From Flavobacteriales bacterium UBA5081 (GTDB lineage Bacteria; Bacteroidota; Bacteroidia; Flavobacteriales_E; Vicingaceae), in NCBI GenBank assembly GCA_002415785.1, contig DIAJ01000032.1, positions 61,142-125,141 on the forward strand: a stretch of DNA of 64,000 nt, read 5' to 3'. How positions within the stretch are numbered: the stretch's first letter is position 1; the number at the start of each line of letters is the position of its first letter. Shown here in pieces: positions 1-19,300 of this stretch. The notes beneath the pieces are model-generated. The model searched no databases and was not told the origin of the DNA. It worked only from the letters and a program-made list of their open reading frames with translations. The position numbers and the translations under genes were made by a program.

Positions 1-83
1 TTCAATTTTATCCTCACTGGGAGATAAGAACAAATTAAAAATTAACATTAACACATTTAAAATCATAAAGTATCAGTTTAAAA

Positions 84-2164: not shown

Positions 2165-2172
2165 CAGAACTC

Positions 2173-2844: not shown

Positions 2845-3358
2845 AATATTTTTTATAAATCTGTTCACTAATTCTATTCGAATCAATATTTCCTTTAGTT
2901 ATTATTTCATTAAAGAAAATATGTAAAAATGGATGAGAACTCCCATCAGGAATTAACTTTATCGTATCTTTTTTATGATAATCCTCTGCCGTTTTCTCTA
3001 CCTGTTTTTTTACATCTTTATCATCAGCAGACTCTAAAGCAATTTTTTTATCATCTGAATACCATTCACTAATGATGTCAGCCACGTTTCCTATAAAGTC
3101 AGGTAATAACTCAAAAGGAGAGTGGTCAAAACTTGGTAAACTTAAATTCCTCCAACGACTAGTGTAATATGTTAAATCTGAGACGACGCTAACATCAAAA
3201 TGTCCATTCGGAATTATATTGGGGTCTGTAACCCAAGGCTCTGCTATTGGTGTATGATTTCTTGTATCAGGACTTGTAAGAATAAAATAATCTTGAGGAA
3301 AAGGCCTTCTCGGTCTATCCGCCGAAATAACTAATCTCATTAGAAATTTATGAATCAA
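2810..3358 (-). CDS. Stand-alone toxin C-terminal domain, paralogous to the toxin part of 3908..4927 but lacking any Rhs core or delivery region (possibly a displaced remnant)
   Basis: VISADRPRRPF...P.GH...LPS...DKDVKKQVEKTAEDYHKK aligns with VISAERPRVPF...DKDVEKQAEKAAEDYNEK of orphan 1. Homology starts abruptly at about 3336, right after the stop (3348) of the upstream immunity gene. An alternative ATG lies at 3340. Confidence 0.6.
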   Translation of the reverse strand: MIHKFLMRLVISADRPRRPFPQDYFILTSPDTRNHTPIAEPWVTDPNIIPNGHFDVSVVSDLTYYTSRWRNLSLPSFDHSPFELLPDFIGNVADIISEWYSDDKKIALESADDKDVKKQVEKTAEDYHKKDTIKLIPDGSSHPFLHIFFNEIITKGNIDSNRISEQIYKKYYENDTNVVKDY

Positions 3359-3908
3359 TCAACCGTGAAGGAATATATAACTCAAACCCTTTGTACTTAA
3401 AACCATCTTTCTTGTAGATTCCAAGTTTTCCTCTTTGATAATAACCTTTATATGGAACTTTAATTGATTCTTGCTTTAAATAGAATGTGTCTAACTTATT
3501 AAAGCTGATATAATTTGAATCGAAATCACCAATAACTAAACAAACAGAATCTTTATACTTTGAGTAATATCTAATGTTTAAATAAGAATCACTTTTCTCA
3601 ATAGAATAAAAGATACTTCTAGAAGAATCAACTTTTCCACTCTCATCATAATTTATTATTTGATTTGTATGTTGAACTCCATTCAATTTAACAGTTGTTA
3701 TTAATCTCTTTAAAATATTAAGATTTGAATCTAAATAAAACTTTACTGAATCTTCTTGCAATTTATTGCTTTCAACATTTCTTACTTCATAAAGTCCGTC
3801 GTTAAATACTATTTGGACTTCATTTTCTTTCTTCTTTTTAAAATTGCAAGAAAAGATAAATAAAACTGTTATTAAAATTATACTATAAGTTTTCATAAAA
3901 TATTTCAT
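3348..3908 (-). CDS. Small lipoprotein, putative cognate immunity protein of orphan Rhs toxin 1
   Basis: 186 aa with signal and lipobox (LITVLFIFSC). Its start codon overlaps the toxin stop in a TAATG junction at 3906-3910, which is typical toxin-immunity coupling. Confidence 0.6.
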   Translation of the reverse strand: MKYFMKTYSIILITVLFIFSCNFKKKKENEVQIVFNDGLYEVRNVESNKLQEDSVKFYLDSNLNILKRLITTVKLNGVQHTNQIINYDESGKVDSSRSIFYSIEKSDSYLNIRYYSKYKDSVCLVIGDFDSNYISFNKLDTFYLKQESIKVPYKGYYQRGKLGIYKKDGFKYKGFELYIPSRLIDS

Positions 3909-4927
3909 TAGTTATTAAATTCATCAATACCGCTCCTTAGAGTATCACCTTCCCCCCTTTCATTATATGGGTCATCTACATCAACTTCAATTTCTCTAAT
4001 AGTATCACGTGTATCATTAAACTCTCTTAAAATTTGCTTTTTCGGTTTTTTCTTTTCATTATAATCCTCTGCTGCTTTCTCTGCCTGCTTTTCTACATCT
4101 TTATCAGTAGTTGATTTCATTCTTGCTTCATCATTATAATATGCCTTAAATGCTCCAACAATTCGAGAAGTGAGATTTGCAATAAATTCCCATGGATGAA
4201 AAATATACGAAGGCAAGTCCATTGATCTGCCTGAAAGTGATGTCATAGCTTCAACCCCCTCGGCATTCCAATGACCTTCCGGAAACCGATCAGGTGCATC
4301 AGACCAAGTTCTAACACTCTGACTAGGAGCATTAGGAGTAGTAAGTGTTATGTATCCCCTTTTAAAAGGCACTCTCGGTCTTTCTGCCGAAATAACTACT
4401 TCCGGTATACTTGACTTCCACCCGGGCGGTGGTCCTTGATCTGTTGGATTTTGATTTTTAGATTTATTCCTTTTTCCATTAAATAAATCACCTATTCCTT
4501 GAAAGAAATTCTTAAACCAAGCTTTAAAGCCGGTTTTACCCATGTGTTTTTGTCCGGTAGATGTTTTACCGGTGAGTCTCTGCCACAGTGTTCTTTTTCC
4601 GGGACCTTTTGCTTCCAACCCACTTGGGTCAGTATAATAAATCGGGTTGTTGTTAAAAGTTGCATAGCTGCTTTGCCAAGGGTAAAAGACTGGGTCTGTA
4701 TTCCATCTTCTGCCGAGCCTTGGGCTGTACTCCCAATTTGGTGCTGTATAATGGTTTCCGCTGCCGCTCCACTCATCGGTTCTCTGCATACCTTGAAACC
4801 CATAGGTGTAAGCATTTAGGCAAAAAAACGGCTCGGGGGCATTCTTTTCTAGAGCGTTTCCAAAAAAATTGGCAATCACTTCTGGAGCTTCCTTTGGCTC
4901 GCAATATGTTAGTTTAAGGCATCCCAT
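3908..4927 (-). CDS. Orphan RHS repeat-associated core fragment plus C-terminal toxin domain (orphan Rhs-CT 1)
   Basis: GCLKLTY...YTYGFQGMQRTDEWSGSGNHYTAPNWEYSPRLGRRWNTDP...NNPIYYTDPSGL is an Rhs core end motif. A variable ~230-aa C-terminus follows, and there are no YD repeats upstream. Confidence 0.8.
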   Translation of the reverse strand: MGCLKLTYCEPKEAPEVIANFFGNALEKNAPEPFFCLNAYTYGFQGMQRTDEWSGSGNHYTAPNWEYSPRLGRRWNTDPVFYPWQSSYATFNNNPIYYTDPSGLEAKGPGKRTLWQRLTGKTSTGQKHMGKTGFKAWFKNFFQGIGDLFNGKRNKSKNQNPTDQGPPPGWKSSIPEVVISAERPRVPFKRGYITLTTPNAPSQSVRTWSDAPDRFPEGHWNAEGVEAMTSLSGRSMDLPSYIFHPWEFIANLTSRIVGAFKAYYNDEARMKSTTDKDVEKQAEKAAEDYNEKKKPKKQILREFNDTRDTIREIEVDVDDPYNERGEGDTLRSGIDEFNN

Positions 4928-5428
4928 TGAAGTTGCAATTTAAGAATTTCTCACTTTATAATCTGCTTAATAATTTCAATTATTGAAATGTAATCTTTGT
5001 TGAAGTAACAAAGTGCCAATATAATTATAACTGTCATAGCCTTCCAGCTTGGTAACTTAAACTCTATTCCTTCAACTCTCTTAATTTTTATCATGTCTTT
5101 TAGTTTTCCTTTATATACATTATGTCATTTTTTTCTCAGATTACCAAGGGCTATTGAGATTGCTACAAAGTTTTGACATTTTGCAAAGTGAAAATAGGAC
5201 ATAAGAAATCATTTAAAATTTAACCTATATTGCTATTAATAAACTAATTACTTAAAATGAAAAGTTTTTGAGGAACTTTAGAAAAATGCTATATTCCTAA
5301 AGTTTAGACAATTAATTGAAAAAATCGTATGACAATTTTTACCAATCTTTTTTTGTCCGAAATTTATCTTTCAACTAACGGTATTTTAACCACTTAATAA
5401 GTTCGATAGGACATTGGTTAAAATCCAC

Positions 5429-5669
5429 ACAAAAAGCAATGCCATTTGCCCGCTAAGATTGCTTTTTGTTCCGCGCTCTGCCCTGGGCTTTTTACTACCC
5501 ATTTTTTAAGCTGACCCAATAACAGCAATTGAGTACAAAAGCTGTTCCCGGACAAGGAAAAATAAGTAGTAAAAAGCTGCCATGCTAAGTAACATAATGT
5601 GCATTATAGAACTCCTCACGGCTCTTGATCTGATTAATGGTGTTGCGGGTCAGCTATAATGTACATTAT
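5429..5669. other. Densely structured noncoding segment (nested perfect stems plus two 14-bp palindromes); candidate ncRNA or recombinase/regulator binding region
   Basis: There is a perfect 12-bp stem at 5429-5440/5458-5469. A second perfect 12-bp stem at 5487-5498/5566-5577 encloses an inner stem at 5521-5526/5541-5546. A long-range pair gctgaccc/gggtcagc lies at 5510-5517/5647-5654. The palindromes are ataatgtgcattat (5594-5607) and ataatgtacattat (5656-5669). Confidence 0.35.
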
Positions 5670-5682
5670 GCTAAATAGCTCC

Positions 5683-6219
5683 CTACCCCGCTTTTCCTTG
5701 CTGATTAGCTTTGTCTTGTAGCTTTATAATCTTTAACAGTAAATAAAGGCTTCTTAAAACGGTAGTTACAATTAGACAAAGGTTAGCTATTACTATGAAG
5801 TTATAGACTTTTGCTGGATATTGACCTTCCGTTATCTTGCAGAGAGATAAAGTCAAAAATATAAACAATAAGACCAAAGAAGCACGGTAAAACACTTTGA
5901 CAGTAGGGTAATATGCTTTTGATTTAAAGAAAAGATCTCTTCCGCTATTGCTATCCTCTCTACTGTTTACTGAATCCTTGAACGTGACTATTATGGTTAA
6001 TGCTGCTAATACGAATCCTGCGAGTGAGATTGAAGTTGAGATCAAATCAGAATTAAGAGATTTCATTACGGCATTATCAAATATAGTAAGCAAAGCTTTC
6101 TGTTGCATCAGATAAACTCCCCATAATATAGCTGCAGTTACAATCAAGTCAATCAAAATAGGGACTTTCAAGTATACATCTAAGACTTTAATGTAAAAAG
6201 GAACTTTATATTTTCTCAT
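5683..6219 (-). CDS. Small integral membrane protein (about 4 TM helices), second gene of a two-gene module
   Basis: 178 aa with four hydrophobic segments (ILIDLIVTAAILWGVYL, ISLAGFVLAALTIIVTF, ASLVLLFIFLTLSL, FIVIANLCLIVTTVL). Its start overlaps the stop of the upstream gene by 4 nt (6216-6219). Confidence 0.7.
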   Translation of the reverse strand: MRKYKVPFYIKVLDVYLKVPILIDLIVTAAILWGVYLMQQKALLTIFDNAVMKSLNSDLISTSISLAGFVLAALTIIVTFKDSVNSREDSNSGRDLFFKSKAYYPTVKVFYRASLVLLFIFLTLSLCKITEGQYPAKVYNFIVIANLCLIVTTVLRSLYLLLKIIKLQDKANQQGKAG

Positions 6220-7148
6220 AAATATTTCCTCTCGTATTCAGTAATCATTTTAGGGAAAAAGTTGCTACTAACTATAACTCTAGAATTAGCCTTTTTCTCG
6301 GCAACTATTTGACTTTTCTCTTTATCAATAATTAAATCAAAAACATCTAATTTATTGTTGTTTTCTTCGTCTTCAGCTTCAACTCTAAATTGCTCAAAGT
6401 TTTCGATCTCGTCTGGTTTAGAGATAAGCTTCCTAACCCATGTCATTATTGAACCTCGAGCAATAGGAGTATCTACTTTTTCCTTGTAATCAATTTTCAT
6501 ATCGAGAGTAACATAATCAGAATTAGCATAATTCTGAGCATGATGAAGAGTTGTAGCTAACCCTTCATCAGTTTCCTTAATCCTATCAATATTATCTCTG
6601 TGAACTTTAACAACAAATTTAGAGACTCGATTAATTCTAGTTGTAATAGATTCAAGGCGATCTCTAACCAATGGGAACGCATCTACCTTCTTTACTCTTT
6701 TTGTTTCACGACCTAAATGAGATAGATACTTTACAAACTCTGTAATTCTTGCACCATAATGATTGTACTCTAAGGCTACTTGAGCTTTTGTTCGATTTCT
6801 ATAGTCAATAAGGAAATGAGTTGTTTCTAATATTCCTTGCTCTTCATCTGTTACTAAATCGCTAATGTCTTCACTAGACATATTGATTAATTGGGGAAAG
6901 ATGTCGTTCCGCACTTTAAACAGTCTCCCTTTTATGTATTTTTTGTCAGGTATAAAATCTAATTGTCCAAAAAATAAAGTGTCGTTCTCTCTTGTTAAGT
7001 ATCTAGATTTATCTTTATCTCTAACGAGTTTATTGACGTGACGAAGGCATTCTAAGTAATTATGTTCAACGCCTTCGTACTTAACAAAATCGTTAAAAGT
7101 GAGTTCATAATAATATAAACTGCGTCTAGTTGTATCGGGAGTAGTCAT
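6216..7148 (-). CDS. Soluble protein of unknown function (~310 aa), first gene of a two-gene module with the 4-TM protein
   Basis: The ORF is open to 7208, but the MTTPDTTRR start at 7148 avoids an implausible hydrophobic leader. I recognise no motif. It is translationally coupled to 5683..6219. Confidence 0.65.
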   Translation of the reverse strand: MTTPDTTRRSLYYYELTFNDFVKYEGVEHNYLECLRHVNKLVRDKDKSRYLTRENDTLFFGQLDFIPDKKYIKGRLFKVRNDIFPQLINMSSEDISDLVTDEEQGILETTHFLIDYRNRTKAQVALEYNHYGARITEFVKYLSHLGRETKRVKKVDAFPLVRDRLESITTRINRVSKFVVKVHRDNIDRIKETDEGLATTLHHAQNYANSDYVTLDMKIDYKEKVDTPIARGSIMTWVRKLISKPDEIENFEQFRVEAEDEENNNKLDVFDLIIDKEKSQIVAEKKANSRVIVSSNFFPKMITEYERKYL

Positions 7149-7313
7149 TTGTTTAAGCTTCCTTGTTATTGCAATGCAAGAAAGATAGTAAATTTTAATT
7201 ATCAACACATTTTATTGTTGGAACTCGCTACATTCCTTGCTCCAACGCAATAGCTTCCCCAAGAGCAATCCATATCCGTCTATGATTCCAACAACAAAAT
7301 GTGTTTCCTATTC

Positions 7314-7532
7314 TTAATTAATTTCAACCTCTCTGTCTGTAAATTGCATTTCTTCTACAATCTTCTGAACCATAGTTCCATCTTCAAGTTCTACATACGC
7401 TCTTAAATATTCTGATCCATCATCATTTTTCAAGGTTATATACATGTGGAACCATCCTCTTACGTATTCTTGATTTTGATATCCCGGAGGATATTTTCTA
7501 AACTTCACTGGTCTTAAATCTTCTTTTTTCAT
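7314..7532 (-). CDS. Small hypothetical protein (72 aa)
   Basis: An intact ORF with non-repetitive, charged and balanced composition, flanked by long hairpins. No recognisable motif. Confidence 0.45.
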   Translation of the reverse strand: MKKEDLRPVKFRKYPPGYQNQEYVRGWFHMYITLKNDDGSEYLRAYVELEDGTMVQKIVEEMQFTDREVEIN

Positions 7533-7759
7533 TTTATTTATTTTTTTAATTCATATATCTATTATACCGTTTAGAGCTTAGAAGTTTTAAAAGATCACTC
7601 TTTTTTAATGAATAAAATTTGGTTGGGGGGTGTCAGTGTGTTTTGTTCATTAAAAAAGAGTAATCCAAACGCTTTCCGGGCTTTATGCGGAGCAAAAGAG
7701 TAGGCAAAGTGCGGAAGGTTAGCAGTCAATTTGATGCGAAGTTAAAACCATAATGATAA

Positions 7760-8395
7760 TTAGAATGGATTAAGTTTATCACTGCTATTATTTTTAATAT
7801 TTACTTTCTCAATTAAAGGTTGTAAAACGGAGTCAATCTTCTTTTTCAAGATTGGAACGTATTCCACAATATCATTTTGATGTAATTCTAAGACATCTTC
7901 AATAGCAGAAACATAATTTTTTAATTCATTTTTCAAAGATTCAATTACTTTATCATTGCCACTAATACCACCTAACCAATTAGTCAATTTAACAACCATT
8001 GTATTATCTTTTATCTCAACCTCAAGAGGTTTGAATCCATAAGTCTTGGAAGGCACACACTTAAAAAAATCCTTATTCCCTTTAAAAGGGATGGTATAAT
8101 TTGCAACTTCAATATTATATCTACGTCCCATGACAAATTCTGTACCTGCAGGTAATTGTTGACCTGACATTTCTTCAATGATTATAGAGGACTTCGTTTG
8201 CTCTTTTAATAAACTTGGAACTTCTAAATCAAGGTCATCTACTAAGTTTTCAATTTCTCTTTCTTTATCAAGGTTTGCTAAAACGCTATCGCTGTATCCT
8301 GTAATTTTATTTTTTACTTCATCCTCTTTTTCAGTTAGATAGTGAGGTAATTGTATCTCTCTAAATAGATTAACGTATTTCTTTCGTCCGAACAT
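7760..8395 (-). CDS. Hypothetical protein (211 aa)
   Basis: An intact ORF with protein-like composition and no recognisable motif. It lies downstream of a ~570-nt GC-enriched noncoding stretch. Confidence 0.55.
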   Translation of the reverse strand: MFGRKKYVNLFREIQLPHYLTEKEDEVKNKITGYSDSVLANLDKEREIENLVDDLDLEVPSLLKEQTKSSIIIEEMSGQQLPAGTEFVMGRRYNIEVANYTIPFKGNKDFFKCVPSKTYGFKPLEVEIKDNTMVVKLTNWLGGISGNDKVIESLKNELKNYVSAIEDVLELHQNDIVEYVPILKKKIDSVLQPLIEKVNIKNNSSDKLNPF

Positions 8396-8444
8396 AATTT
8401 TTTATTTTAGTTATTTATTAAATGAGCTGATTTTTAATCAGCTA

Positions 8445-9010
8445 TTATGCCATCATTTTAATACTGACATATTTACTGATTAAACGAAATGTAAGGAAAA
8501 ACAGCCTTGAGCCAAACGGCGTAGCCATAGCGCTGACATTGCGAGCCGCCTGCGAGTTGAGCAAAGGTGGGGCAAATAAAAGCATGAGGAACGAATGCAA
8601 TTTGCCGCTATGTAGGGTTTTGAAAAACGGAGACACATCTAGAAAATAAACAGGAGGGTCGAGGCTTTTCAAAACCCGGACGAGGCTACCGATTTAATCG
8701 CCAGAGCGTCAGCGGAGGCAAGTCAATAAGGAAAACCGAAGCCTGCCGCGACCCGCAGGCGAGCAAAACATGGGCAAACGGTGGGTTTTTAGTTGTTGCA
8801 ATATCTTCGATTTGCAAGGGCTAAAAACACAGAGTAGTTTGCCGTGACGACTGGCCGAGGAACGCAATAAAAGTGACAAGCTGCGAAGCACCCGAAGGGT
8901 TTTACAGCTTATTTTTTAATCCTTTTAAAAACCAACTATTCTAAAAAATGTGCTGTGAAAGCTTGGCGGTTTTATTTGCTGACGACCGAAGGAGGAACAC
9001 CGCTTTTCCT
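8445..9010. ncRNA. Candidate large structured noncoding RNA or decayed element (GC-enriched, hairpin-rich, non-coding)
   Basis: The segment is locally much more GC-rich than its flanks. It has a perfect 12-bp stem at 8615-8626/8666-8677, a 6-bp stem at 8741-8746/8755-8760, and three GAGGAAC motifs. The ORFs called here translate to low-complexity R/S/L-rich sequence. Confidence 0.3.
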
Positions 9011-9013
9011 GTT

Positions 9014-10087
9014 CTATTTATTCAATTTCCTTTCCATTTCTATCTCTTTTCGCTCTCTTTCAATTTCCTTTTCCAACTCTTCTTCAGTTGGTAAATAAGT
9101 CATGTATTTAGATGCAAAAATCTGTTTGCTTTCATTCAGTAAACTGTATTTCACAACAGTATGGTCTTTTTCAGTGCAGAGAATTAGCCCTATGGTCGGA
9201 TTGTCGTTTTCTTTTCTCACTTTATCTTCAAAATAGCGAACGTACATATCCATTTGCCCAATGTCTTGGTGGCTCAGCTCCGTTGTTTTAAGGTCGATTA
9301 TCAGAAAGCATTTTAAGATGTAATTGTAAAACACCAAGTCGGCGTAAAAGTGTTTACCTGTTTCAGTGGTTAATCGGTGTTGTCTGCCAACAAAAGCAAA
9401 ACCTTTTCCGAGTTCCAGTAAAAAGTCCTGTAGCTTATCAATAATGGCTTGTTCTAACTCACTTTCTCTAAAATTGGGATTATCCTTTAAACCCAAAAAT
9501 TCTAAAACATAAGGATCTTTAATAATGTCGCCTGCTTCTTGCTCTTGTGTTTTTTGAAGGGCTTCTTCTTTAACTACTTTGTCATTTCTACTCATGAACA
9601 TTCGTTCATAATAGAGATTCCCAATTTGTCGATCAAGGCTTCTTGTGCTCCAATTACAGTCAATCGCCTCATTCAAATAAAATTCTCTGGCTTCTTCCTT
9701 TTCTACTTTCAAAAGCAAGCGATAATGTGTCCAACTCAATTCGGAACGCACTGCGTTCCATTTTGGAAAAACTCTGTAAAACTGCCGAATATGCCTTAAG
9801 TTTCGATTGCTAAACCCTTTGCCGTATTCTTTAGTTAGTTTTTCGGATAATTCCTCTAATAAAGCCTCTCCATATTCTGCTCGTTCTTCTCCCTTCTGTT
9901 CTTCTTCAACAATCAACTTTCCAATGCTCCAATAGGCTTGAACCATTGCAAAATTTGCTGCCCGATACACTTTGTCTCTCGACTCTTCTATAACTTGCTT
10001 TACTTCTTTGTAAAGGTTTTCTATTGTCTTTTGGGGGAACTGTTCTGCCATAGTTTTCAAATTTACTTTTTCAACTTGATATTCCAA
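9014..10087 (-). CDS. YhcG/DUF1016-family PD-(D/E)xK nuclease domain protein
   Basis: The N-terminal pattern is typical of DUF1016 (AYWSIGKLIVEEEQKGEERAEYGEALLEELSEKLTKEYGKGFSNRNLRHIRQFYRVFP). The C-terminal ADLVFYN...LIIDLKT is a PD-(D/E)xK-like core. Confidence 0.85.
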   Translation of the reverse strand: MEYQVEKVNLKTMAEQFPQKTIENLYKEVKQVIEESRDKVYRAANFAMVQAYWSIGKLIVEEEQKGEERAEYGEALLEELSEKLTKEYGKGFSNRNLRHIRQFYRVFPKWNAVRSELSWTHYRLLLKVEKEEAREFYLNEAIDCNWSTRSLDRQIGNLYYERMFMSRNDKVVKEEALQKTQEQEAGDIIKDPYVLEFLGLKDNPNFRESELEQAIIDKLQDFLLELGKGFAFVGRQHRLTTETGKHFYADLVFYNYILKCFLIIDLKTTELSHQDIGQMDMYVRYFEDKVRKENDNPTIGLILCTEKDHTVVKYSLLNESKQIFASKYMTYLPTEEELEKEIERERKEIEMERKLNK

Positions 10088-10113
10088 TTTGGAACATCAA
10101 ACACTTATTCTTT

Positions 10114-11058
10114 CTAAAACGGATAAAACTCATCGATATCTTTCTGTAAATCTTCCGTATGATTCACTAAATATCCTTCCGTAGAACTTACATATCGATG
10201 TCCGGCCATGTACTGAACTTGCCTTAAATTAAATTGCTTTAGCCAATGTGTAATCACAGAAGTCCGAACTTGTTTGAAGTTGATAAAATAGTTGTTTTGC
10301 TCTCTGATTTCTTGACTTAATCGCTTCCAAATTTCTTTACAATCTGTTCTTACATTATAATTTCTTCCGAATGGTGGCGAGCTGATAAATAAATTGTTAG
10401 TTTCTCCTTTGCAGTATTTCAACAGCTCATTCCTTGTTGTAAATTGGTATTCCATCAGTTCAATAATTTGGTTTGATTTCAATTCCAATGTCCGTTCGTT
10501 GCTCTTTCTTCCTCCGGCAATAAATATTTTGCCTTCTTTCAATTTTAGATCACTCAGTTGTAAATTGCTTACTTCCGGAGTGGTTAAACCTTGATGGATC
10601 ATTAAACTTAAAATGGCTTTGTTTCGAGCTTTACTCAATCGGTAACTTTCAAACCAATTTCGCTTGGCTCGCTCATCTTTTTCATCGGGAATTTTGTAAT
10701 CAGTATAAAGCTTGTCCAATTGTTGTTTATCTAAAATCGGATAAAGCTTTTTCGTTTTTGCTCCTCTAATTCTCAGGTGCTGAACCGGATTGTCTGTTCG
10801 GTGGCCTTGTTCGATTTGATAGTTAAAAAACTGCTTGATCACATTCAACCTAATGTTTCGGGTTTTGCTTTCCTGTCCTTTCTTCTGCAAGTGGTTCAAA
10901 TAACTTAGAACTTCTTTTGCTGTAGCGTTTTCCGGTTCTGTGTGGTCTTTGTCCAACCATGCTAAAAAATCAAGTGCGTAGCTGCTGTAATGGCTTACGG
11001 TGGATTTGCTTTTACCTTGGCTTTGTAAATAATCTTTAAAGCTTTTCATCTTTATCAA
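10114..11058 (-). CDS. Tyrosine-type site-specific recombinase (divergent second subunit)
   Basis: It has an N-terminal SAM-like core-binding region and a C-terminal catalytic region with VRTSVITHW...GHRYVSSTEGY (R...H/R...Y). It overlaps the upstream recombinase by 23 nt. Confidence 0.8.
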   Translation of the reverse strand: MIKMKSFKDYLQSQGKSKSTVSHYSSYALDFLAWLDKDHTEPENATAKEVLSYLNHLQKKGQESKTRNIRLNVIKQFFNYQIEQGHRTDNPVQHLRIRGAKTKKLYPILDKQQLDKLYTDYKIPDEKDERAKRNWFESYRLSKARNKAILSLMIHQGLTTPEVSNLQLSDLKLKEGKIFIAGGRKSNERTLELKSNQIIELMEYQFTTRNELLKYCKGETNNLFISSPPFGRNYNVRTDCKEIWKRLSQEIREQNNYFINFKQVRTSVITHWLKQFNLRQVQYMAGHRYVSSTEGYLVNHTEDLQKDIDEFYPF

Positions 11059-11974
11059 TTAAGTGTGTGTAAATCTGTGTGCTCTCCAAGCTGCTGTGAC
11101 CTAAGAACCGTTGGATCTTCTGCAATTCCATTCCGTTTTCTAAAAGGTGGGTTGCGATGGAATGCCGTAACGTATGTAAACCCACTTCCTTTTGCTGTAA
11201 GTCTGGATTATCAACCAACAGGATCAGTTTCTTTAATCGCGTGTACAAACTGCCGCCTGTCATGGCTTTTCCGAACATGCTGATAAAAAGTTTTCCGTCC
11301 TTTTGGCTCTTGATCAATTGTGGTCTGTAATCATAAATCCATTCCTGCAAGATTTTGGAACTCGACTTGCTGAACGGAACCAATCGTTCTTTGTAGTTCT
11401 TGCCTTTTCTCACATGCAGGATTCTCCGGTCAAAGTTCAGATCATCTACCTCCAAGCTGCTGCCTTCTCTTCTTCGTAATCCACAAGCATAAAAAACCAC
11501 CAACATCGCTTTGTCCCTTGCGTTGAAGGCTTCTTGTTTTGGGTGTACAGTTTCCTGGTTGGTAGCTTCAAAAAGTTGTTTAATTTCTTCTTGTGTCAAA
11601 ACGGTAATGTTTCCCTTTTCAACTTTGAGTTGCTTTAAAGTTACGGGCGGGATTCCATTTGTTCCTTTGTGTTGTAAGAACTCATAGAACTTTTCAAGTG
11701 CTTGAATTTGTTGGTTGATATAAACGTTTCCAAGTCCTCCTCCTCTTCGTTGGTTGGGTCGTGTGCTCAGGTAATCAAAGTAGTCTTTGTAATGTTGGCT
11801 TTGGAGTTGATTGATCTGGTTGCAGTCTTCTTGCTCTAAAAAATGCAGGAACTCGCGAATCATGGAAGGCATGTTGTAAACGGTCTGCGGATTGTAACCG
11901 AGTATGTCCAACCACTCTTTAAAAGCGACTTGTAAGTGTTCGTAGCTAGGGTTTTTTAGCGGTAAATTTTTCAT
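11036..11974 (-). CDS. Tyrosine-type site-specific recombinase/integrase (XerC/D-like)
   Basis: ACGLRRREGSSL (catalytic R) together with HTLRHSIATHLLENG...LGHSSLESTQIYTHL gives the canonical R-H-R-Y set. Confidence 0.9.
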   Translation of the reverse strand: MKNLPLKNPSYEHLQVAFKEWLDILGYNPQTVYNMPSMIREFLHFLEQEDCNQINQLQSQHYKDYFDYLSTRPNQRRGGGLGNVYINQQIQALEKFYEFLQHKGTNGIPPVTLKQLKVEKGNITVLTQEEIKQLFEATNQETVHPKQEAFNARDKAMLVVFYACGLRRREGSSLEVDDLNFDRRILHVRKGKNYKERLVPFSKSSSKILQEWIYDYRPQLIKSQKDGKLFISMFGKAMTGGSLYTRLKKLILLVDNPDLQQKEVGLHTLRHSIATHLLENGMELQKIQRFLGHSSLESTQIYTHLIDKDEKL

Positions 11975-12004
11975 TCGCTTATACCTTTTGGTGAACTTTT
12001 TGAA

Positions 12005-13633
12005 CTACGCCTTTACAACTTTGGTTTTCTTTGACTTAGGTGGTTCATTTTTTGATTGAACCGCTTTTGAACGTTCAGACTTTTCTTGGAGTAAATTTTT
12101 TAAGGCTTCTAAGCTCTGATCTAGTGCTGTGTTGATTTTCTCTTTTAATTGCCTGTATTCTTCGTAGCTTGTTATTTGATATTGATAACCTTGGTTCTTA
12201 TTGCCTTTGATTCGTTTTAAATAGTAGTTGCTTACTAAGCTAATTGTCCACCGTTTTTGATTGCTTTGGTTGATCCGTAGTTTCTTTCTGATTTCTCGAT
12301 TACTAAAAGTTTTCTTGTTTTCTACTTCTAAATAAGCTTTGATTTGTTCCAGGTAGTTTCTGCAAGCTCCGTTGAGTTCATCGGATTTGCGGAGTAAGAT
12401 TTCTTTTAACAGTCGGTTAGTTGCTTCTATGTCTTCTAAAGTGGTTTCAATGTAGATTTCTCCGGTTTCTTCGTCTGCTTTCTGTTCCCGCTGATGTTGA
12501 TGATAAAAAGTAACCGCTTCAATAAATTGTAAATAATGGTTGTTCGTTCTCCGGGGCTTAAAAACCTCTTTCGGGATTTGTAGGATTTCAGCAAAGGGAT
12601 TGACTACTTTGATGGGTTCCAATAAGCGTTGACAGTTCTGTAATAATTGGGCTGCTTCGGCTTCTTCTTGTTTGTTGATTTTTCCTGCTGAAGATCTCCG
12701 CTGGTAGTCCATAATTCTCTGGTCTTGTTCTTCGCTTTCATCTAAATAAATCAAAAAGGATCGGTTGGCGTTGTCTTCATAAATCTGTTCTTTGGTGGTG
12801 CATCCTGCAACGCTTACCGGACCTTCAACCACTAAATGCAATGTTTTGGTTTCTCCTTTGGTGTTCTTGTGGGCTACGGTTTTGGAGATTCGCTTTTTGG
12901 ATTGTAATTCTCTTAGTGGATAGAGCACGTTTTCTGCTCCGTCCAAGTCTTCAATTAAGATCAGTTTATTTTTGAGTTCTCTTTGTCCAAAGTAGTAAAA
13001 GGCGTTTTCGCTTAATGTGGTAATTTCGATTCGGTCTTCTTCGGGTACCAGCTCTCCAACTTTTTCTTGTAAATGGGTTTTGCCTGTTCCACTTGCTCCA
13101 AGACTTACAATGTGTAGCGGTTGGGTTTGTTTTCTGCTCGTAAAAATCAGGTACATCAAAAGCCGGTTGTTTTCTTCGCCTATCATTCCTGATTTCCCGA
13201 TCATTTCATTAGTTCGTTCTAATAGGTTTTCTGATTTGAGGAAGGTTTCAGCTTCCTTGCGTTCGTCATTGCTCAGTTTGGGCGGTTCGTAAGGTTTGGG
13301 CTGGTTCTCTTTAATTTGCTTCATGCGGTAGGCTTCCAACTGACCGGTGAGCTCGGCCATGCTCGCAGCAAGTACACTGGTTCCAATCTCTAACTTTTCT
13401 GCGGCTCTTCGGATCAGCTTCTCGGTTTGGTTGTCGTTGTACAGGTCTAAGTTGTGGCGTACTGGTGGTGCACTCGTCTCGTCTCCGCTCGACGTGACGA
13501 GTTCGATTTTTAAAGTACTTCGCATTCGATCTAATCCATCCAATTTGATTCCGCCCAAAACAGTTAATTTGAGTAGGTCGTTTTGGTAGATTAGGCTTTC
13601 CGGGTTCGTGGTGTTGAAGTTTTTTGCTGCCAT
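12005..13633 (-). CDS. P-loop NTPase, putative replication/primase-helicase-like protein of the integrative element
   Basis: Walker A is LGASGTGKTH and Walker B-like is KLILIEDLDGAE. The C-terminal region is basic and winged-helix-like. It is divergently arranged with an XRE regulator. Confidence 0.6.
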   Translation of the reverse strand: MAAKNFNTTNPESLIYQNDLLKLTVLGGIKLDGLDRMRSTLKIELVTSSGDETSAPPVRHNLDLYNDNQTEKLIRRAAEKLEIGTSVLAASMAELTGQLEAYRMKQIKENQPKPYEPPKLSNDERKEAETFLKSENLLERTNEMIGKSGMIGEENNRLLMYLIFTSRKQTQPLHIVSLGASGTGKTHLQEKVGELVPEEDRIEITTLSENAFYYFGQRELKNKLILIEDLDGAENVLYPLRELQSKKRISKTVAHKNTKGETKTLHLVVEGPVSVAGCTTKEQIYEDNANRSFLIYLDESEEQDQRIMDYQRRSSAGKINKQEEAEAAQLLQNCQRLLEPIKVVNPFAEILQIPKEVFKPRRTNNHYLQFIEAVTFYHQHQREQKADEETGEIYIETTLEDIEATNRLLKEILLRKSDELNGACRNYLEQIKAYLEVENKKTFSNREIRKKLRINQSNQKRWTISLVSNYYLKRIKGNKNQGYQYQITSYEEYRQLKEKINTALDQSLEALKNLLQEKSERSKAVQSKNEPPKSKKTKVVKA

Positions 13634-13669
13634 CTAAAAAATATTTTTACTGATATATCTATCACAAAA

Positions 13670-13689
13670 GTATAAGATATATCTTATAC
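13670..13689. promoter_or_regulatory. Perfect 20-bp palindrome (gtataagatatatcttatac) in the divergent promoter region; candidate operator for the adjacent XRE repressor
   Basis: I read the palindrome directly. It sits between the ATPase start (13633, minus) and the HTH gene start (13776, plus). Confidence 0.45.
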
Positions 13690-13775
13690 ACACAAGAGTC
13701 ATCTGACTTTGTTCTGACATTTATATCCCCTATCTTTGTCTGAATAGCTTATTTCATTACTTATTACTGTTATTT

Positions 13776-14099
13776 ATGACGTTTGGAGAACGCATTACAA
13801 GCATTCGTAAAGCAGCCGGATTTTCCCAAAATGAACTGGGGAAAAAGGTGGGTACTTCCGGGGATATCATCGGCAAGTATGAACGCAACGAGGTAAAGCC
13901 ATCTATTGAGGTGGCTTCTAAAATTGCGGATACACTGGAAGTGTCTTTGGATTATCTGCTCGGTAAAACTTCTGTGCAGCTTGATAAAACTACCATTAAG
14001 CGTTTGCAGGACATTGAAGCCCTACCGGAAGAAGACCGCTTGCACATCTTTTATGCGCTCGATAATCTCATTAAAGCTGCTAAATTTAAAACGATTTAA
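13776..14099 (+). CDS. XRE-family helix-turn-helix transcriptional regulator
   Basis: RKAAGFSQNELGKKVGTSGDIIGKYERNEVKPSIEVASKIADTLEVSLDYLLG is a typical HTH_3 (Cro/C1) domain. Confidence 0.9.
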   Translation: MTFGERITSIRKAAGFSQNELGKKVGTSGDIIGKYERNEVKPSIEVASKIADTLEVSLDYLLGKTSVQLDKTTIKRLQDIEALPEEDRLHIFYALDNLIKAAKFKTI

Positions 14100-14101
14100 T
14101 T

Positions 14102-14386
14102 ATGCCACTAAATGATGTACAAGGTTCTATTACCGTGACCGATAACAACGGTAACCAACACACTATTAATGCTGAAGACTTAGATTTCCAAGAAGTTGAA
14201 AGACATGAGCGGGAAATGGGACCTGAAGTAATTTATACTGGAGAAGTCCAAGCGGAAGATAGTAGTTGGTCTGCAACGGTTCAAGTCACTGAATACCCAT
14301 TAGGACAACAAGAAGGAGACGAAGATATTGAGACTGATAATTGTACCGCTCAAAGTAATCTGACTTTTAACTTTCAAGTTGAGTAG
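14102..14386 (+). CDS. Small acidic hypothetical protein (94 aa) coupled to the XRE regulator
   Basis: It starts 3 nt after the HTH gene stop. It is strongly acidic (E/D-rich) with no recognisable motif. Confidence 0.5.
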   Translation: MPLNDVQGSITVTDNNGNQHTINAEDLDFQEVERHEREMGPEVIYTGEVQAEDSSWSATVQVTEYPLGQQEGDEDIETDNCTAQSNLTFNFQVE

Positions 14387-14470
14387 AACTTGGATAACTT
14401 CAAGACCATAGAAATTCTTGAATCTCTTGCCAATGGTATTGATCCTACCGCTATACTTGCCGCAGCAGAG

Positions 14471-15466
14471 CTAATTACTCATCTCACTTAAATAACGGGC
14501 ACTTACCCAACCTGCTTCTAATGTTCCTGTTCCCGGTTTTGTATAAGTAACGTATCTCCAATGATTAATCGATTTAACTATTGTTACTATTTCTCCTTTA
14601 GGAATAGTAAGTAGAATAGTTTCCTTCGATCTGGTATTGGGTTCACTTCGTAAATTGAGATTAGCTGTGGTTTCTCTATCATTTTCGGTTAATGATTGTA
14701 TTAATATTCCTAACTGTTCTAATTTCTCTTCACTTATTACTTCCTCTTGACTTTTAGACTTTTCTAATTCTATAACAGAATATAAAGCCACCAAAACACT
14801 TATGATTGTAAAAATAAGTCCTATTTTTTCTCTTAATTCTCTTACTTTATCTCTTTGTGCTCGCTTCTCCTCTCGACTTTCCGCTTTCTTTAAAAGTTCA
14901 TTAGTTTTTTGCTGCTCTGCAAGATTTCTTTTAGTAAGCTCTACTAACTTATTTAAAACCTGATTTGACAGAGTTCCTTCTTTTTCTACTTTATCTAATA
15001 TCTCAGCGGCTTCTATTAAGTCCTGATCCTCTACAAGGTAATTGTTCCAAAAACTTTTAGGCAATAAACCCACTACCATATTGGGCAAAAATGCAGCCCC
15101 TTGTATATCGTGAATTTTACTAGCTTGCTCTAATCGACTATTTAAACTCTGCATGCTCTTAGCAATGCTCAAAAGGCTTTTATTTTGAGTTCCATTCGTT
15201 ATATCTTGCAACTTATCATACATTGATTTCATTTTCAATAAATCCGAGGATGGAGTAAAACGATTATAGACCCTTTGGATTTTTTCAAAAGCTTCCATCA
15301 CACCAGATGAGCCAAAATGTTTGCTAAAGTCCGGTAATGGAGTTCCTGTAGATAGTCCTGAACTAATAAACCTTCCTTCCTTCTTCTCCGGTTTCGACTC
15401 CCTCTTTTTCTTTGCTTTGTCTGGTTTATCCTTTAAGGACTTTTCCCCCTTTTTCTTTTTTGCCAT
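14471..15466 (-). CDS. Single-pass membrane protein with polybasic N-terminus, coiled-coil middle and C-terminal bacterial SH3 domain
   Basis: The N-terminus is MAKKKKGEKSLKDKPDKAKKKRESKPEKK and the TM segment is IGLIFTIISVLVALYSVI. The C-terminal NLRSEPN....ILLTIPKGEIVTIV....HWRYVTY......GWVSARYL fits the SH3b pattern. Confidence 0.65.
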   Translation of the reverse strand: MAKKKKGEKSLKDKPDKAKKKRESKPEKKEGRFISSGLSTGTPLPDFSKHFGSSGVMEAFEKIQRVYNRFTPSSDLLKMKSMYDKLQDITNGTQNKSLLSIAKSMQSLNSRLEQASKIHDIQGAAFLPNMVVGLLPKSFWNNYLVEDQDLIEAAEILDKVEKEGTLSNQVLNKLVELTKRNLAEQQKTNELLKKAESREEKRAQRDKVRELREKIGLIFTIISVLVALYSVIELEKSKSQEEVISEEKLEQLGILIQSLTENDRETTANLNLRSEPNTRSKETILLTIPKGEIVTIVKSINHWRYVTYTKPGTGTLEAGWVSARYLSEMSN

Positions 15467-15633
15467 TCTTTTTATTTAAAAAGCCCCTAATCTCTCAGAG
15501 GCTTAATGCTTTTTTATCCCGCTAGCTGATAAATATTCCCGCAGCATGCAAATAATGCGGAGCGGATACCAGAACATTTGAATACGGCGAAACAGGTCGC
15601 AGCAGGTATTTAATTTAAGTGACATTACCGCAT

Positions 15634-16329
15634 TTACCTACCTAAAAACCCATTTAAAGGTATTCGAGAAAAGCAAGAATTTAACTCCTGTTTGGAAAGA
15701 GGATTAGCTCCAATTGTTGACTCATTAACATTAATGTAAAATACAGATTTAAAACAATCCAGCTTTGTTGATTGATTATCATAGCCCTTCAGTAAACAGT
15801 CTAAATCTAACTCTTCAAACAATCTATCTAAACTTTCCCACTTTGATATTAAACTTTCTAATACTTTTGTCTTTTTCCTATTTTTCAGAAAGTAATCAAA
15901 CAACAAATTAATATCATTCTCTACATACCCTCCCACCCTCAAACAAGCATTACTAGCCATATCTTTATAACATAATAAAAACCTAGCTTGATTATAACTA
16001 TTATCATCAGGTAATTTAAATAATTGAATTTGATAATTCTGAATATCAAATCCCAACTCATTTGGAAGCTTTAAACTAAAAACAGGAGTATTAACAATCT
16101 TCATGTATTTATAGTGATTCTCTCGAATAAAATCCCTCCTCTCCCAGCTTAAATCAGAGGCATAATGTCCATCTGTTTCAACACTTGTATACAATAACAT
16201 TTTAGTCTTCTCATCAGTTTCATCCCCTTGAGCTAAAACTTGAACTTGCATGCTTAAAGCTAAAAAAACAGTTATCAAAATCCATTTATCAACTATGTAA
16301 TAATTATTACTATTCTTTGCATTCATCAT
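15634..16329 (-). CDS. Exported protein, putative cognate immunity protein of the main RHS toxin
   Basis: 231 aa starting 10 nt after the RHS gene stop. It has an N-terminal signal/anchor (WILITVFLALSMQVQVLAQG). The function is inferred from position only. Confidence 0.55.
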   Translation of the reverse strand: MMNAKNSNNYYIVDKWILITVFLALSMQVQVLAQGDETDEKTKMLLYTSVETDGHYASDLSWERRDFIRENHYKYMKIVNTPVFSLKLPNELGFDIQNYQIQLFKLPDDNSYNQARFLLCYKDMASNACLRVGGYVENDINLLFDYFLKNRKKTKVLESLISKWESLDRLFEELDLDCLLKGYDNQSTKLDCFKSVFYINVNESTIGANPLSKQELNSCFSRIPLNGFLGR

Positions 16330-16339
16330 TTTTACGCTC

Positions 16340-19300
16340 TTAATATTTCAACGGATTAGGTCTACTACCACCTTTCATAATATAATCTTGATAATCAAAT
16401 GAAAAGTTTGTAGATCCTCTTTGGTGATAAGGAAGCTCTCTATCTCTATATGATGACCTAGGATTCTTTACACTAAATAAAGCATCTCCAAACTCGTTTG
16501 CCATAGTGCTCACATTAAGTCCAAGACGATATAGACCGATATGAATCTCATTTCCACTTATTGTTGTTGGGAGGTCATATTGCCCCCCCGTTTTGAAGTC
16601 CTCTACCTTAATAATGTCTTCCTCAGGATAAGATATGAGAGTCTCACCATATTGACCCTTATTTCCTGAAAATCCACTCTTTAACCCCACAATTATATCA
16701 ATCTCTTCGCCATTGAATGTTAAATTATTTAAAATATCAAACTCGGATTCATTTTTTGACTTAAATCCTTCAATTTGCTTATTAACTTTCTGGTATTTAT
16801 CATATAGTCTAAAGTTTCCTTTATTTGCCCGATATTCTTTTCTGGCAGCTCTTTTCTCCGATTTAGTTTGAGCATTATCAACCTTACTACTTAATTCTTC
16901 TTTCAATCCTTCATATTTCGCACCAGCTTGATATTTATTCTTCACACTATCTCCCAATGGATCAGAATACATAATCGGATTCCCTTGCATAATCGCATAC
17001 GGGCTAAAAGAAGTGTTTGGCTTAGGATCTAAATTCCATCTGTGAACTGCCCTTGGATCATATTCCCAAAATGGTGCTGTATAATGGTTTCCACTGCCGC
17101 TTACTTCGTCTGTTCGTTCCTGTCCGTTAAAGCCATAGGTGTAAGCATTTTCCTCCCTCATCGCTAGCGGCACAGTAGTATTCTCAAAAGTTTGCGTTAT
17201 TTTAATGTTACTAAGCGTTAGTACCAATGAATGTCTAGCATAAGGAGACTCTTTTACCAATAGGAATACTTCAAGTTCTCCTCTTCTTTGAATGCTATTA
17301 ATTTCATCTCCTTTCAAATCAAAGGTAATTACCTTATCATCTGCCTTAATAATTTCATCAACTGTAGCATCAGAACCGGCACTTGGACTACTTACAACTC
17401 CATCAATGAAGTCTAATTTTGCTGTTATCGGTCGACTCATAGTACCATTCATCTCAATTTCGATCCGATAATTTCCATCCGGGTCTATATTTTGAACAGT
17501 GTATGATAAAGGAATATCAATAAGTAACTTGAAATCTTTATTATCTCGCTGTTTAATTACATAGCTTTCAACATATTCTTGACCATAGATGTTCGTATTC
17601 GTTTCACAAATATCCTCCTCTAAGTCCATATCATAAGCATCACAATCTTTCAATAGCCCACTGTAGAGTAATTCAGTTACATCGGTGGTATAATCAATGT
17701 TTGTAAAGTTTCCGGAGCGGCTCATGATCTCCATACCAAAGGGATAGTAATCATACCTTCCCGTAACTTCCGGCTGAAAACCAATCGTGGTATCTACTGC
17801 ATGTGAACCCGGTGGTAATAGCTCCTGAGGATGCAACTTTTTGTCACTAAACGTAGCTACTACATTGCCCAAATGGTCACTTAATTCATATTGTTTACCG
17901 CCTAACTTGCGGCTATATATATTATCATCATCTTCACGCTTACTTTTGGCATTCATGGTGCCTAAACGAGAACTGCCGTAAATGTTATATGAAGAAGCTA
18001 ATAAATATAAACTATCCGACGGACAGCCCGCCAAACCAGGAAAGATAACATCTAAAGCACCTTCTAATTCTTTTGCATAAGCATAAGGACTCAGATGAGA
18101 CACACCACTTAATGCAGTATTTAAAGTATCGTAATAATAGTGCTGTTTAACACTCTTATTAATGTGATACTCCTCAAAATAGTGAATAAGATTTACAAGA
18201 TTTTCTGAGGAATGAAGTGCCTCTTTGCTATATGAATCGTCCTGAATTATATTAATAAAGTCACTAATATTTGCTCTTAATGCGCTAATTACATAAGGGT
18301 AGTAATTGCCCGGTGAGCTTTGATATAAGCTTATATCATTTAAATTAAGTGTTTCTAAGTAATTAAGCATTGGATTGATTATTCCCCATGAAGCATAATC
18401 CAAATGTATGAAATATTTTAGGAAATCACCATTGGTATCATAAGTAAAGTCAAGGGTGTAACTCAATGGTTCAAATGGATTTAATTGCCCAATGTCAATT
18501 TGGGACTCTACATCGTGGTAGGCATGAGCACCGTGAATTAAAAACATTAAACTGTTTAGAGCATCTAAATCATTCTGATTAAGCCAAGAGTATGCATTGT
18601 AAAAATGATTCAAATCAATCAATTGCATTACTTCTTCTAAAACACTACCATCCATATTACCAAGGATTAGTAAGGCTTTAATCTTTCTAATTAAATCTGC
18701 TACCCCATTAGGATCATTATTTTCTAACCGGGAGTTAAGTTGCTCCATTAGTTGACCTAATTGGTCAATTAAAAAACCGGAATCATGGATGGCTGCTTCC
18801 ATAATGTCAAACTCGCCGGCAGAAATATCCAAAAGATTCTGAATCATAGTTAAATCTCCCATAGCATATAATTCAGCTATAATGTCTCTATATGCTTCAT
18901 AAAAATAAATTGCATTTTCTCCTTGATCTGATAATGAATAATATGAAGTAAAATTGTTATTATAACTGGAGTAAAAATTCTGAATATCATTATTTTCAAT
19001 TAAGTAACGAATATAAACTTCATGCTTGTTATTCACTGCCATTATAAAACTTGAACCAGATGAAGGGTCATAAAAGATATCTGCCCAATATTGTGGATCT
19101 TCATCAAAGATACGAAGCGCAGCTCCCGGATACAAGCCTATGTATTGGCTTACATCCATATAGTGTATTATGGTATCCCGAATATTGGGAACCATGTCTA
19201 AATAGGCAACTGCCTCATTTTTTAATTCATCTTTTTTACTAAATTGATTCAACAAGAAATAAAAAAAAGCATCTTCACCAATCTGTTCTATTGCATTTAG

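Follow-up and report, generated by a model that had tools for sequence, protein, structure and literature searches.

Replacement of Rhs C-terminal domains, with orphan tips as its product, was described by Jackson et al. (2009; as cited in PMC13183296), and tip displacement and orphan expression were treated by Koskiniemi et al. (2014; PMC3967940) and Poole et al. (2011; PMC3150448). The arrival of tips in Rhs and other polymorphic toxins has so far been ascribed to unspecified horizontal transfer and homologous recombination, and a 2026 paper that reports identical tips in different Rhs contexts of Flavobacteriales gives no mechanism. Recombinases are known from comparable loci: in the rAID (recombinase-associated acquired interbacterial defence) clusters of gut Bacteroidales, one recombinase stands at the head of arrayed orphan immunity genes whose intergenic stretches hold conserved motifs (Ross et al., 2019, summarised in bioRxiv 10.1101/2025.05.03.651265), and XerC/D genes lie beside polyimmunity loci (Zhang et al., 2012; PMC3482391). 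Here we analyze an rhs locus in a 64,000-nucleotide stretch of contig DIAJ01000032.1 from Flavobacteriales bacterium UBA5081 (the window, positions 1–64,000), where a 12,333-bp unit, read on the minus strand, carries an Rhs toxin tip, its candidate immunity gene, and two genes of the tyrosine recombinase type.

We consider it highly probable that the unit is integrative, carries a tip, and has the core end of Rhs at its borders. The evidence consists of its borders, its double copy number, an end-to-end junction, a family-wide linkage to rhs, tandem and circularly permuted copies, and a patchy distribution across several orders. The whole account, in which the exchange of tips would be driven by recombinases, we regard as likely. 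The element is probably self-contained, replicative, and integrative. From its left end, it comprises the core-end motif with toxin and immunity genes; an SH3 accessory gene; a divergent XRE regulator gene; the ATPase gene and the two recombinase genes, here called recA and recB (recA is thus not the gene of the host RecA protein); a cargo slot holding YhcG; a noncoding block of ∼570 nt; further cargo; and a right end supplying an ATG, an MGCLKLTY leader, and a core repeat.

Borders and copy number of the unit

The initial annotation had described an island at 4928–15633, between the immunity gene of the main rhs and an orphan toxin array, and had found no flanking direct repeats. Those borders turn out to be gene boundaries only. 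An 18-bp exact direct repeat (17133–17150 = 4800–4817) and steps in sequencing depth place the mobile unit at 4818–17150, so that it includes the main toxin domain and its immunity gene. The repeat had been missed because it sits inside the rhs open reading frame (ORF) and an orphan ORF, and a repeat search over 1–17000 stopped short of the left repeat, which extends to 17150, and so was of no use; a wider search found it. The features at the two borders are as follows.

16340–26014, minus strand: rhs, 3224 aa, a full-length YD-repeat protein with Rhs_assc_core followed by the C-terminal toxin domain
17133–17150, minus strand: left junction core (attL), 18-bp repeat that opens the Rhs_assc_core motif in the main rhs (coding strand, AAATGCTTACACCTATGG)
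16340–17132, minus strand: element-borne 3′ end of rhs, from the remainder of Rhs_assc_core to DPLGD plus the C-terminal toxin domain, inside the double-depth unitig 10154–17150
15634–16329, minus strand: candidate immunity gene, 231 aa with an N-terminal hydrophobic segment, directly 3′ of the toxin and inside the double-depth unit
4818–4927, minus strand: right arm ("P arm"), element DNA that supplies the ATG and the leader MGCLKLTY...LEKN... to the displaced tip
4800–4817, minus strand: right junction core (attR), 18-bp repeat, where the single-depth unitig 1–4829 meets the double-depth unitig 4800–10182
3908–4799, minus strand: displaced former tip (orphan 1), outside the element, at single-copy depth, with a TIGR03696 match

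The 18-mer starts a 90-nt block with 79% identity between the main Rhs (17150–17061) and orphan 1 (4817–4728), whose ORF starts at 4927. This block corresponds to the RHS repeat-associated core domain, TIGR03696, which matches Rhs residues about 2956–3021 and is found in the main Rhs and both long orphans; a YD repeat match is also present. The locus thus has a YD-repeat protein, Rhs_assc_core, a polymorphic C terminus, an immunity gene, and tips that bear the same motif, as expected of an rhs gene with an orphan array. The toxin domains matched no Pfam family, and the candidate immunity gene matched no family.

Depth was read from Logan contigs and unitigs of public runs containing the organism (isolate or enrichment read sets; runs X4 and X21 look like refiled X5 data). 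Unitigs 4800–10182 and 10154–17150 had twice the word depth of 1–4829 and of the sequence from 17121 onward. The ratio recurred in four read sets, with unit and flanks at 57–60 and 30–31 (X5), 26–29 and 13 (X13), 9.5 and 5.2 (X12), and 8.4–8.8 and 3.5–4.7 (X23). In all four, the unitigs break at 17121–17150, and depth is halved past 17150. A 42-nt unitig at single-copy depth reads, on the plus strand, TGTCCGTTAAAGCCATAGGTGTAAGCATTT followed directly by AGGCAAAAAAAC, that is, 17121–17150 and then 4818–4829. It joins the element's right arm to its own toxin tip, an attP-type junction.

Twofold depth together with joined ends indicates either a tandem dimer collapsed by the assembly or one integrated copy plus a circle, and the constant 2:1 ratio in four data sets favors the dimer. 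The rhs locus is therefore probably 12.3 kb longer than assembled. A second copy elsewhere in the genome was considered and rejected: the only other similarity is a 135-nt relic of the recB 3′ end on contig C11, and the branch at 17121–17150 has only two continuations.

Contig C2 holds another full-length rhs (118003–127974; ORF, at least 3324 aa) whose own core-end motif lies close to an end of the contig; the 1.8 kb available next to it showed no element module.

Related modules and gene content

A query with the ATPase alone against one genome per prokaryote species returned 257 relatives, all but one labelled Bacteroidota, and 72 loci were analyzed. The ATPase gene is followed by recA in 66 loci and by recB in 59, and the divergent XRE gene precedes it, kept in place and orientation, in 59 of the 72. 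For the linkage to rhs, we counted all modules with enough flanking sequence (74 upstream, 43 downstream). A core-end motif of Rhs lies 1.7–4.2 kb upstream on the same strand in 71 of the 74 (median 2351 nt), and another follows recB in 40 of the 43 (median 1.9 kb). Nearly every motif is co-oriented with its module (107/108), a long YD-repeat ORF terminates in the upstream one in at least 16 loci, and motif-to-motif units measure 6.3–12.3 kb. That relatives might carry the module at unrelated loci, a possibility raised in the initial annotation, was therefore not borne out.

The distribution of the module is patchy and multicopy. It occurs in only 6 of 41 close relatives; among 401 evenly sampled Bacteroidota genomes, 16 (about 4%), from several orders, have it, and a number of genomes hold multiple copies. 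Metagenome-assembled genomes labelled Flavobacteriales, Cyclobacteriaceae, and Fulvivirga encode ATPases that are more than 80% identical, and close backbones bear unrelated toxins. Tandem units that are 98.8–100% identical, each starting at a core-end motif, are present in L016, L024, L055 (a chromosome-level record), L067, and L075, and tandem pairs 5.8–8.5 kb apart were found in 5 of the 16 positive genomes, two of them single-contig. Two full contigs with terminal overlaps, L064 and L076, are circular permutations of single units (8588 and 8058 bp), and L064 holds one right-arm-to-tip junction.

These counts bear on two other explanations. One is a plain passenger, an unrelated integrative element with borders near 4928 and 15633 that happened to land between the immunity gene and the array of orphans. 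The gene order in this one window would suit it, and there is neither a tRNA nor a repeat at 4928/15633; however, the depth steps and unitig breaks fall at 4800–4829 and 17121–17150 instead, and related modules share the linkage to the Rhs core end. Depth steps and family-wide linkage together lead us to reject the passenger reading, which we hold to be extremely improbable.

The other is a resident platform, comparable to an integron or an rAID cluster, in which a fixed and itself immobile module captures, excises, and reshuffles cassettes of tips and immunity genes. Cassettes devoid of recombinases do exist (orphans 1 and 3 in this locus and a row of three tips in L062), strain X13, described below, differs by exactly one core-to-core segment, and genes of the XerC/D type are known beside polyimmunity loci, as are rAID arrays. 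Against this stand the position of the recombinases inside the repeated unit, the duplication of whole units in tandem and their presence on circularly permuted contigs, the patchy multicopy occurrence of near-identical backbones in different orders, and scores far below the cut-off of the integron integrase model IntI (TIGR02249: 101 bits for recA and 35.5 bits for recB against 265). We judge a resident platform to be quite improbable.

The initial annotation had offered two readings, and each survives in part. An integrative element agrees with the present data, but a mere passenger landed in the array does not, since the main tip and the immunity gene belong to the unit, which has the Rhs core-end motif at either end. 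A tie between the recombinases and the toxin/immunity cassettes is upheld by the linkage counts and by rearrangements; a likeness to rAID clusters or integrons is not, as each unit contains two recombinases, an ATPase, and an XRE regulator and carries toxin tips, not only immunity genes.

Searches of ORFs and families reproduced the gene order and families first noted for 4928–15633 and, as before, found no tRNA in the window. The remaining features of the unit are the following.

14471–15466, minus strand: SH3_3 protein, membrane-anchored through a hydrophobic segment, with C-terminal SH3_3 (Pfam SH3_3, E 2.9e-7)
14102–14386, plus strand: 94-aa ORF of no family, directly after the XRE gene
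13776–14099, plus strand: XRE/HTH_3 regulator gene, divergently transcribed (HTH_3, E 4.8e-14)
12005–13633, minus strand: P-loop (Walker A/B) ATPase, 542 aa, core gene 1
11036–11974, minus strand: recA, canonical Xer-sized tyrosine recombinase, core gene 2 (Phage_integrase, E 1.9e-38)
10114–11058, minus strand: recB, divergent protein of the tyrosine recombinase fold, core gene 3 (Phage_integrase, E 1.2e-14)
10106–10182, minus strand: recB 3′ end, conserved as DNA, one edge of the variable cargo slot
9014–10087, minus strand: YhcG-type PD-(D/E)XK nuclease, cargo (Pfam YhcG_C, E 1.9e-59, and DUF1016_N; PADLOC PDC-S02, E 2.3e-149)
8440–9030, minus strand: nc1, GC-rich noncoding block of ∼570 nt, part of the element backbone
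7760–8395, minus strand: 211-aa PDC-S54-like protein, variable cargo (PADLOC PDC-S54, E 9.3e-23)
7314–7532, minus strand: 72-aa ORF of no family, variable cargo
6216–7208, minus strand: 330-aa ORF of no family, variable cargo
5683–6219, minus strand: 178-aa multi-pass membrane protein of no family, overlapping the 330-aa ORF, variable cargo
4928–5682, minus strand: nc2, right-end noncoding region, 755 nt, conserved with L025

The SH3_3 protein is a variable accessory gene, with a homologue at the same position only in L020 among the related loci. The cargo is equally changeable: YhcG occurs in only 5 of 72 related loci, and the proteins of 5683–8395 had no tblastn match in them. Copies of the recB 3′ end recur elsewhere, twice in L025 (20712–20776 and 21184–21248; 65 nt, 95% identical) and once at the start of contig C11 (84% identical). 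On C11 (177–957), this copy and a copy of 8968–9013 flank a YefM/YoeB toxin-antitoxin pair. The recurrence of these two sequences points to the bounds of an exchangeable cargo slot, filled by YhcG in the window, and the edge of the slot may be a second recombination site. Two cargo genes (7760–8395, PDC-S54; 9014–10087, PDC-S02/YhcG) match PADLOC candidate defence families, from which it follows that the element carries candidate antiphage genes besides its toxin and immunity genes.

The "structured noncoding DNA" of the initial annotation includes a conserved block with covarying base pairs, nc1. We found it in 14 related loci (17 nhmmer hits beyond the window), usually right after recB; copies lie at L025:15000–15624, L029:4968–5546, L058:6834–7413, L079:13628–14226, and other sites, and are inverted in L037 and L055. 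The alignment supports a closing stem and long-range helices, with compensatory changes in 23 of 57 consensus pairs. No Rfam family matched at gathering thresholds, a search with E up to 1 returned only chance-level miRNA hits, and the 3′ part of nc1 appears in three marine metatranscriptomes. nc1 is likely a new large structured RNA of the element family. A role as guide RNA through contiguous matches found no support: the longest words that each block shares with, or has complementary to, its own junctions average 8.8 nt, vs. 8.7 nt in mismatched pairs.

At the right end, nc2 is 76% identical over 941 nt to the sequence at the same position in L025 and is also present in L030 and L060. The right arm is conserved with the same three loci and is ∼88% identical, by eye, to that of L025 as DNA. 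In ∼20 loci, it encodes, in the frame of the displaced tip, an ATG and "GCLKL(T/S)Y ... LEKN ... EKNR"; orphan tip 3 of the window has no such leader. A second right-arm subtype resembles "DYF.GGM.MP.R", and Rhs-core homology then starts ∼20 codons earlier.

More distant relatives were also seen. A clade of the same gene triad at 25–32% identity (L027:2132–5476, L046:3341–6686, and L081:3872–7280) ends 160–820 nt upstream of an Rhs core-end motif, which implies that the Rhs association predates the subfamily studied here. In G429, G349, G365, G421, and G401, the ATPase lies within an open frame of 835–894 aa, which suggests fusion to a neighboring domain or gene. Elsewhere in the window, two group II intron domains ∼400 nt apart (Rfam RF01999 at 53891–54009 and RF00029 at 53411–53486; together 53411–54009, minus strand) would represent a group II intron that is degraded or lacks an ORF.

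Crossover, recombinases, and rival mechanisms

X13, a close strain, differs from the assembled sequence by one cassette-level deletion. A 6018-nt contig runs through orphan 3 to 2150 and continues into the right-arm sequence GCATTTAGGCAAAAAAAC, and 2260–4769 is at zero depth. The missing segment, 2151–4799, holds orphan 1, its immunity gene, a naked toxin fragment, and a MORN-repeat gene, and the deletion runs exactly from core to core. In the reads, the right arm is joined to three different tips. The initial annotation had made the tie between recombinases and cassettes depend on detectable rearrangements; this strain difference and the end-to-end junction at single-copy depth provide them.

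Both events allow the crossover to be bracketed. Compared with orphan 1, the X13 contig has three of the five orphan-3-specific letters and lacks the last two, which places the switch inside 4791–4804 (TATGGGTTTCAAGG on the coding strand). For the junction of the dimer or circle, the crossover is confined to the 18-mer. Common to both intervals is TATGG, which spells the Tyr-Gly codons of a near-invariant Y-G-F. By a rough estimate, the two crossovers are 7–10 times likelier under a fixed site than under a model of RecA-type recombination, because longer identical blocks further in went unused.

recA has the full R-K-H-x-x-R-H-Y set (Arg-I, Lys, His-x-x-Arg, His, and Tyr), kept in 65 homologues. 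recB has no Arg-I and has Gln in place of His-II, with Arg-II, His-III, and Tyr kept, and these substitutions recur across 59 homologues. These patterns indicate a canonical enzyme with a conserved degenerate partner, and the earlier description of one canonical and one divergent recombinase is borne out. The 23-nt overlap reported for the two genes is right for the ORFs as annotated but shrinks to 14 nt with the ATG at 11049 taken as the recB start. Among NCBIfam models, both proteins are nearest to XerC, XerD, and XerA, far below the equivalog cut-offs (recA, 183 vs. 335 for XerC and 178 vs. 330 for XerD; recB, 95 and 120). The genome has other Xer-like paralogues at 31–35% identity. Scores below these cut-offs and the presence of the module in so few close relatives led us to reject a XerC/XerD pair for dimer resolution. 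A full catalytic set, a direct core repeat, a junction of joined ends, and a patchy distribution are features that the unit shares with integrative elements of the tyrosine recombinase type.

The ends of the element lie in the conserved coding sequence of the Rhs core end (Rhs_assc_core, "A-Y-T-Y-G-F..."). We propose that a circular form with the order right arm, core, own tip recombines at the matching short core of a resident rhs gene, with the crossover in or beside the Tyr-Gly codons TATGG. The Rhs shell would be fused in frame to the incoming toxin, and the incoming immunity gene would come along. The previous tip and its immunity gene would be pushed downstream and turned into an orphan with a start codon and leader taken from the element, and repeated events would build tandem units and orphan arrays. 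The TATGG region would be nearly identical in any rhs gene, an identity that tyrosine recombinases need. Tandem units would be expected from reintegration or sister-copy exchange, as with Xer-dependent phages. We lean toward the view that the element's own recombinases make the exchange at TAYGG.

The other two conserved proteins would serve the excised and the quiescent state. The ATPase, which probably replicates the excised circle, has Walker A (GASGTGKT) and Walker B (LILIEDLDG) motifs invariant in 37 homologues, a beta domain at its N terminus, and a winged helix at its C terminus; its profile matches the winged-helix regulator 3r0a. It had no match in Pfam, NCBIfam, PADLOC, or PDB sequences, and PHROGs gave only families of unknown function. 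A predicted structure offers a lead toward a replication-type AAA+ protein, a candidate replication initiator or helicase. The XRE protein, with the 94-aa ORF, is a candidate repressor that probably keeps the ATPase-recombinase operon off. In two marine metatranscriptomes, 13736–17300 (tip, immunity, SH3, and XRE genes) had a contig depth of 9–17 and the ATPase and recombinase genes a depth of 0–4, a pattern that fits a quiescent integrated element under repressor control, with contig depth a poor measure and DNA carry-over possible.

The strongest competitor is an episome that exchanges DNA by homologous recombination. A plasmid-like unit would enter by a RecA-dependent Campbell exchange across the core end, with the recombinases inactive at the rhs junction; the ATPase would be its Rep protein, the two Xer-like proteins would be its multimer resolvases, and the Rhs tip would merely be carried. 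The junction homology is long enough for this (at least 90 nt, with identical blocks of 18–21 nt), symmetric binding sites were not seen at the core, the edge of homology varies by subfamily (YRYGF vs. DYYPFGM), Xer-sized recombinases without arm-binding domains are typical resolvases, and the ATPase is weakly like replicative AAA+ proteins. However, both crossovers sit at the very 5′ border of the homology and have 5 nt in common, despite identical blocks of equal or greater length further in; 79% identity makes a poor RecA substrate; the right arm adjoining the core is kept as DNA between elements; and conservation of the degenerate partner throughout the family is not needed for a simple resolvase. 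On this balance, we think the episome unlikely.

Several observations weigh against the recombinase-driven account or parts of it. Depth and junction by themselves fit a tandem dimer and a copy plus circle alike, and a dimer could also come from unequal homologous exchange. The two bracketed crossovers also fit RecA-type recombination in identical blocks of 18 and 14 nt, and the points where identity starts in the tandem arrays mark the edge of homology, not a crossover. In some family members, homology reaches further upstream, to DYYPFGM. A universal DNA att site across the family was rejected, the wobble positions of the motif carrying almost no information; around the core, clear inverted binding sites were not evident, and dyad symmetry about TATGG is weak. 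recB is without the catalytic arginine. The AlphaFold model of the ATPase has a mean predicted local distance difference test score (pLDDT) of 69.7, with the core below 50, and its top Foldseek matches (MCM4, MCM7, and ORC subunits) are weak, at a template modelling score of about 0.3. The element contains no transfer genes that would account for movement between cells. No empty site, with the Rhs core joined to the old tip, was seen in contig-level data, in which Logan contigs drop rare variants, and no near relative without the element was found for an empty-site comparison. Low-coverage metagenomes, checked for an empty site or an excision product, held identical fragments only; in a compost metagenome, similarity to a ∼92% identical Rhs stops at 17196, on contigs too short to interpret.

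A bolder combination of three ideas would make these elements autonomous "toxin-tip transposons." An active and a degenerate Xer-like protein would form a heteromer whose crossover is fixed by the Tyr-Gly codons, opening almost any rhs gene to entry; the ∼570-nt RNA would be a required cofactor of recombination or replication, as a scaffold or a split short guide; and kin killing would keep the element in place, losers forfeiting immunity to their siblings' toxin. That all three hold together is doubtful, and we offer the combination as speculation.

Comparison with known systems

In the searchable full-text literature, with subscription literature outside this scope, we found no description of tip-carrying integrative elements. 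If our account is right, the family would be a concrete and testable vehicle for tip exchange in Bacteroidota and a rare mobile element with a conserved protein-coding motif as its attachment site, one that inserts in frame and alters what the target gene does, neither disrupting nor merely restoring it. At rhs loci, the element accounts for breaks and repeat collapse in assemblies, and it points to a new conserved structured RNA. It also supplies a marker set for new toxin/immunity pairs, namely everything from the core-end motif to the XRE gene.

Among the closest systems are the Rhs displacement arrays, where, as here, a main rhs gene is followed by displaced core-end tips paired with immunity genes, and new tips replace old ones at the core end. 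That literature invokes homologous recombination with incoming or resident DNA and leaves the vehicle unnamed, whereas here the tip lies in a unit of 6–12 kb with its own recombinases, ATPase, and regulator, and the orphan receives an element-encoded start and leader. The rAID clusters and polyimmunity loci share with this locus a tyrosine recombinase linked to co-oriented conflict cassettes and a Bacteroidota host, and perhaps a conserved sequence ahead of the cassettes, here the right arm before many downstream tips. The rAID clusters serve defence and hold immunity genes, whereas the element brings a tip that becomes fused to a full-length Rhs. Its hosts are marine, soil, and other environmental Bacteroidota.

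Integrons resemble the locus in that cassettes without promoters are inserted at a fixed site by a tyrosine recombinase and older ones move down the array. The integron integrase, however, is encoded outside the cassettes and acts on a folded attC, whereas the element's recombinases travel along and its site is a protein-coding motif. The element is not an integron: the IntI model is unmatched, and the recombinases are duplicated together with the unit.

CTX-phi and other integrative mobile elements exploiting Xer (IMEX) resemble the element in recombining by the Xer route at a short core, in often forming tandem arrays, and possibly in having only one catalytically competent partner. They borrow the host's XerC/D and integrate at dif, whereas the family described here encodes its own pair and targets rhs coding sequence. 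Elements of the Tn554 type, with two tyrosine recombinases, and recombinase-in-trio (RIT) elements, with three, have adjacent recombinase genes and are small, site specific, and without terminal inverted repeats; compared by description, they differ from the present element in gene sizes, partners, and target. In Rci shufflons, site-specific recombination inside a coding sequence swaps the C terminus of a protein. Shufflons do so by inverting resident segments, whereas the element's segments are co-oriented and change by insertion, excision, and deletion of a horizontally mobile unit.

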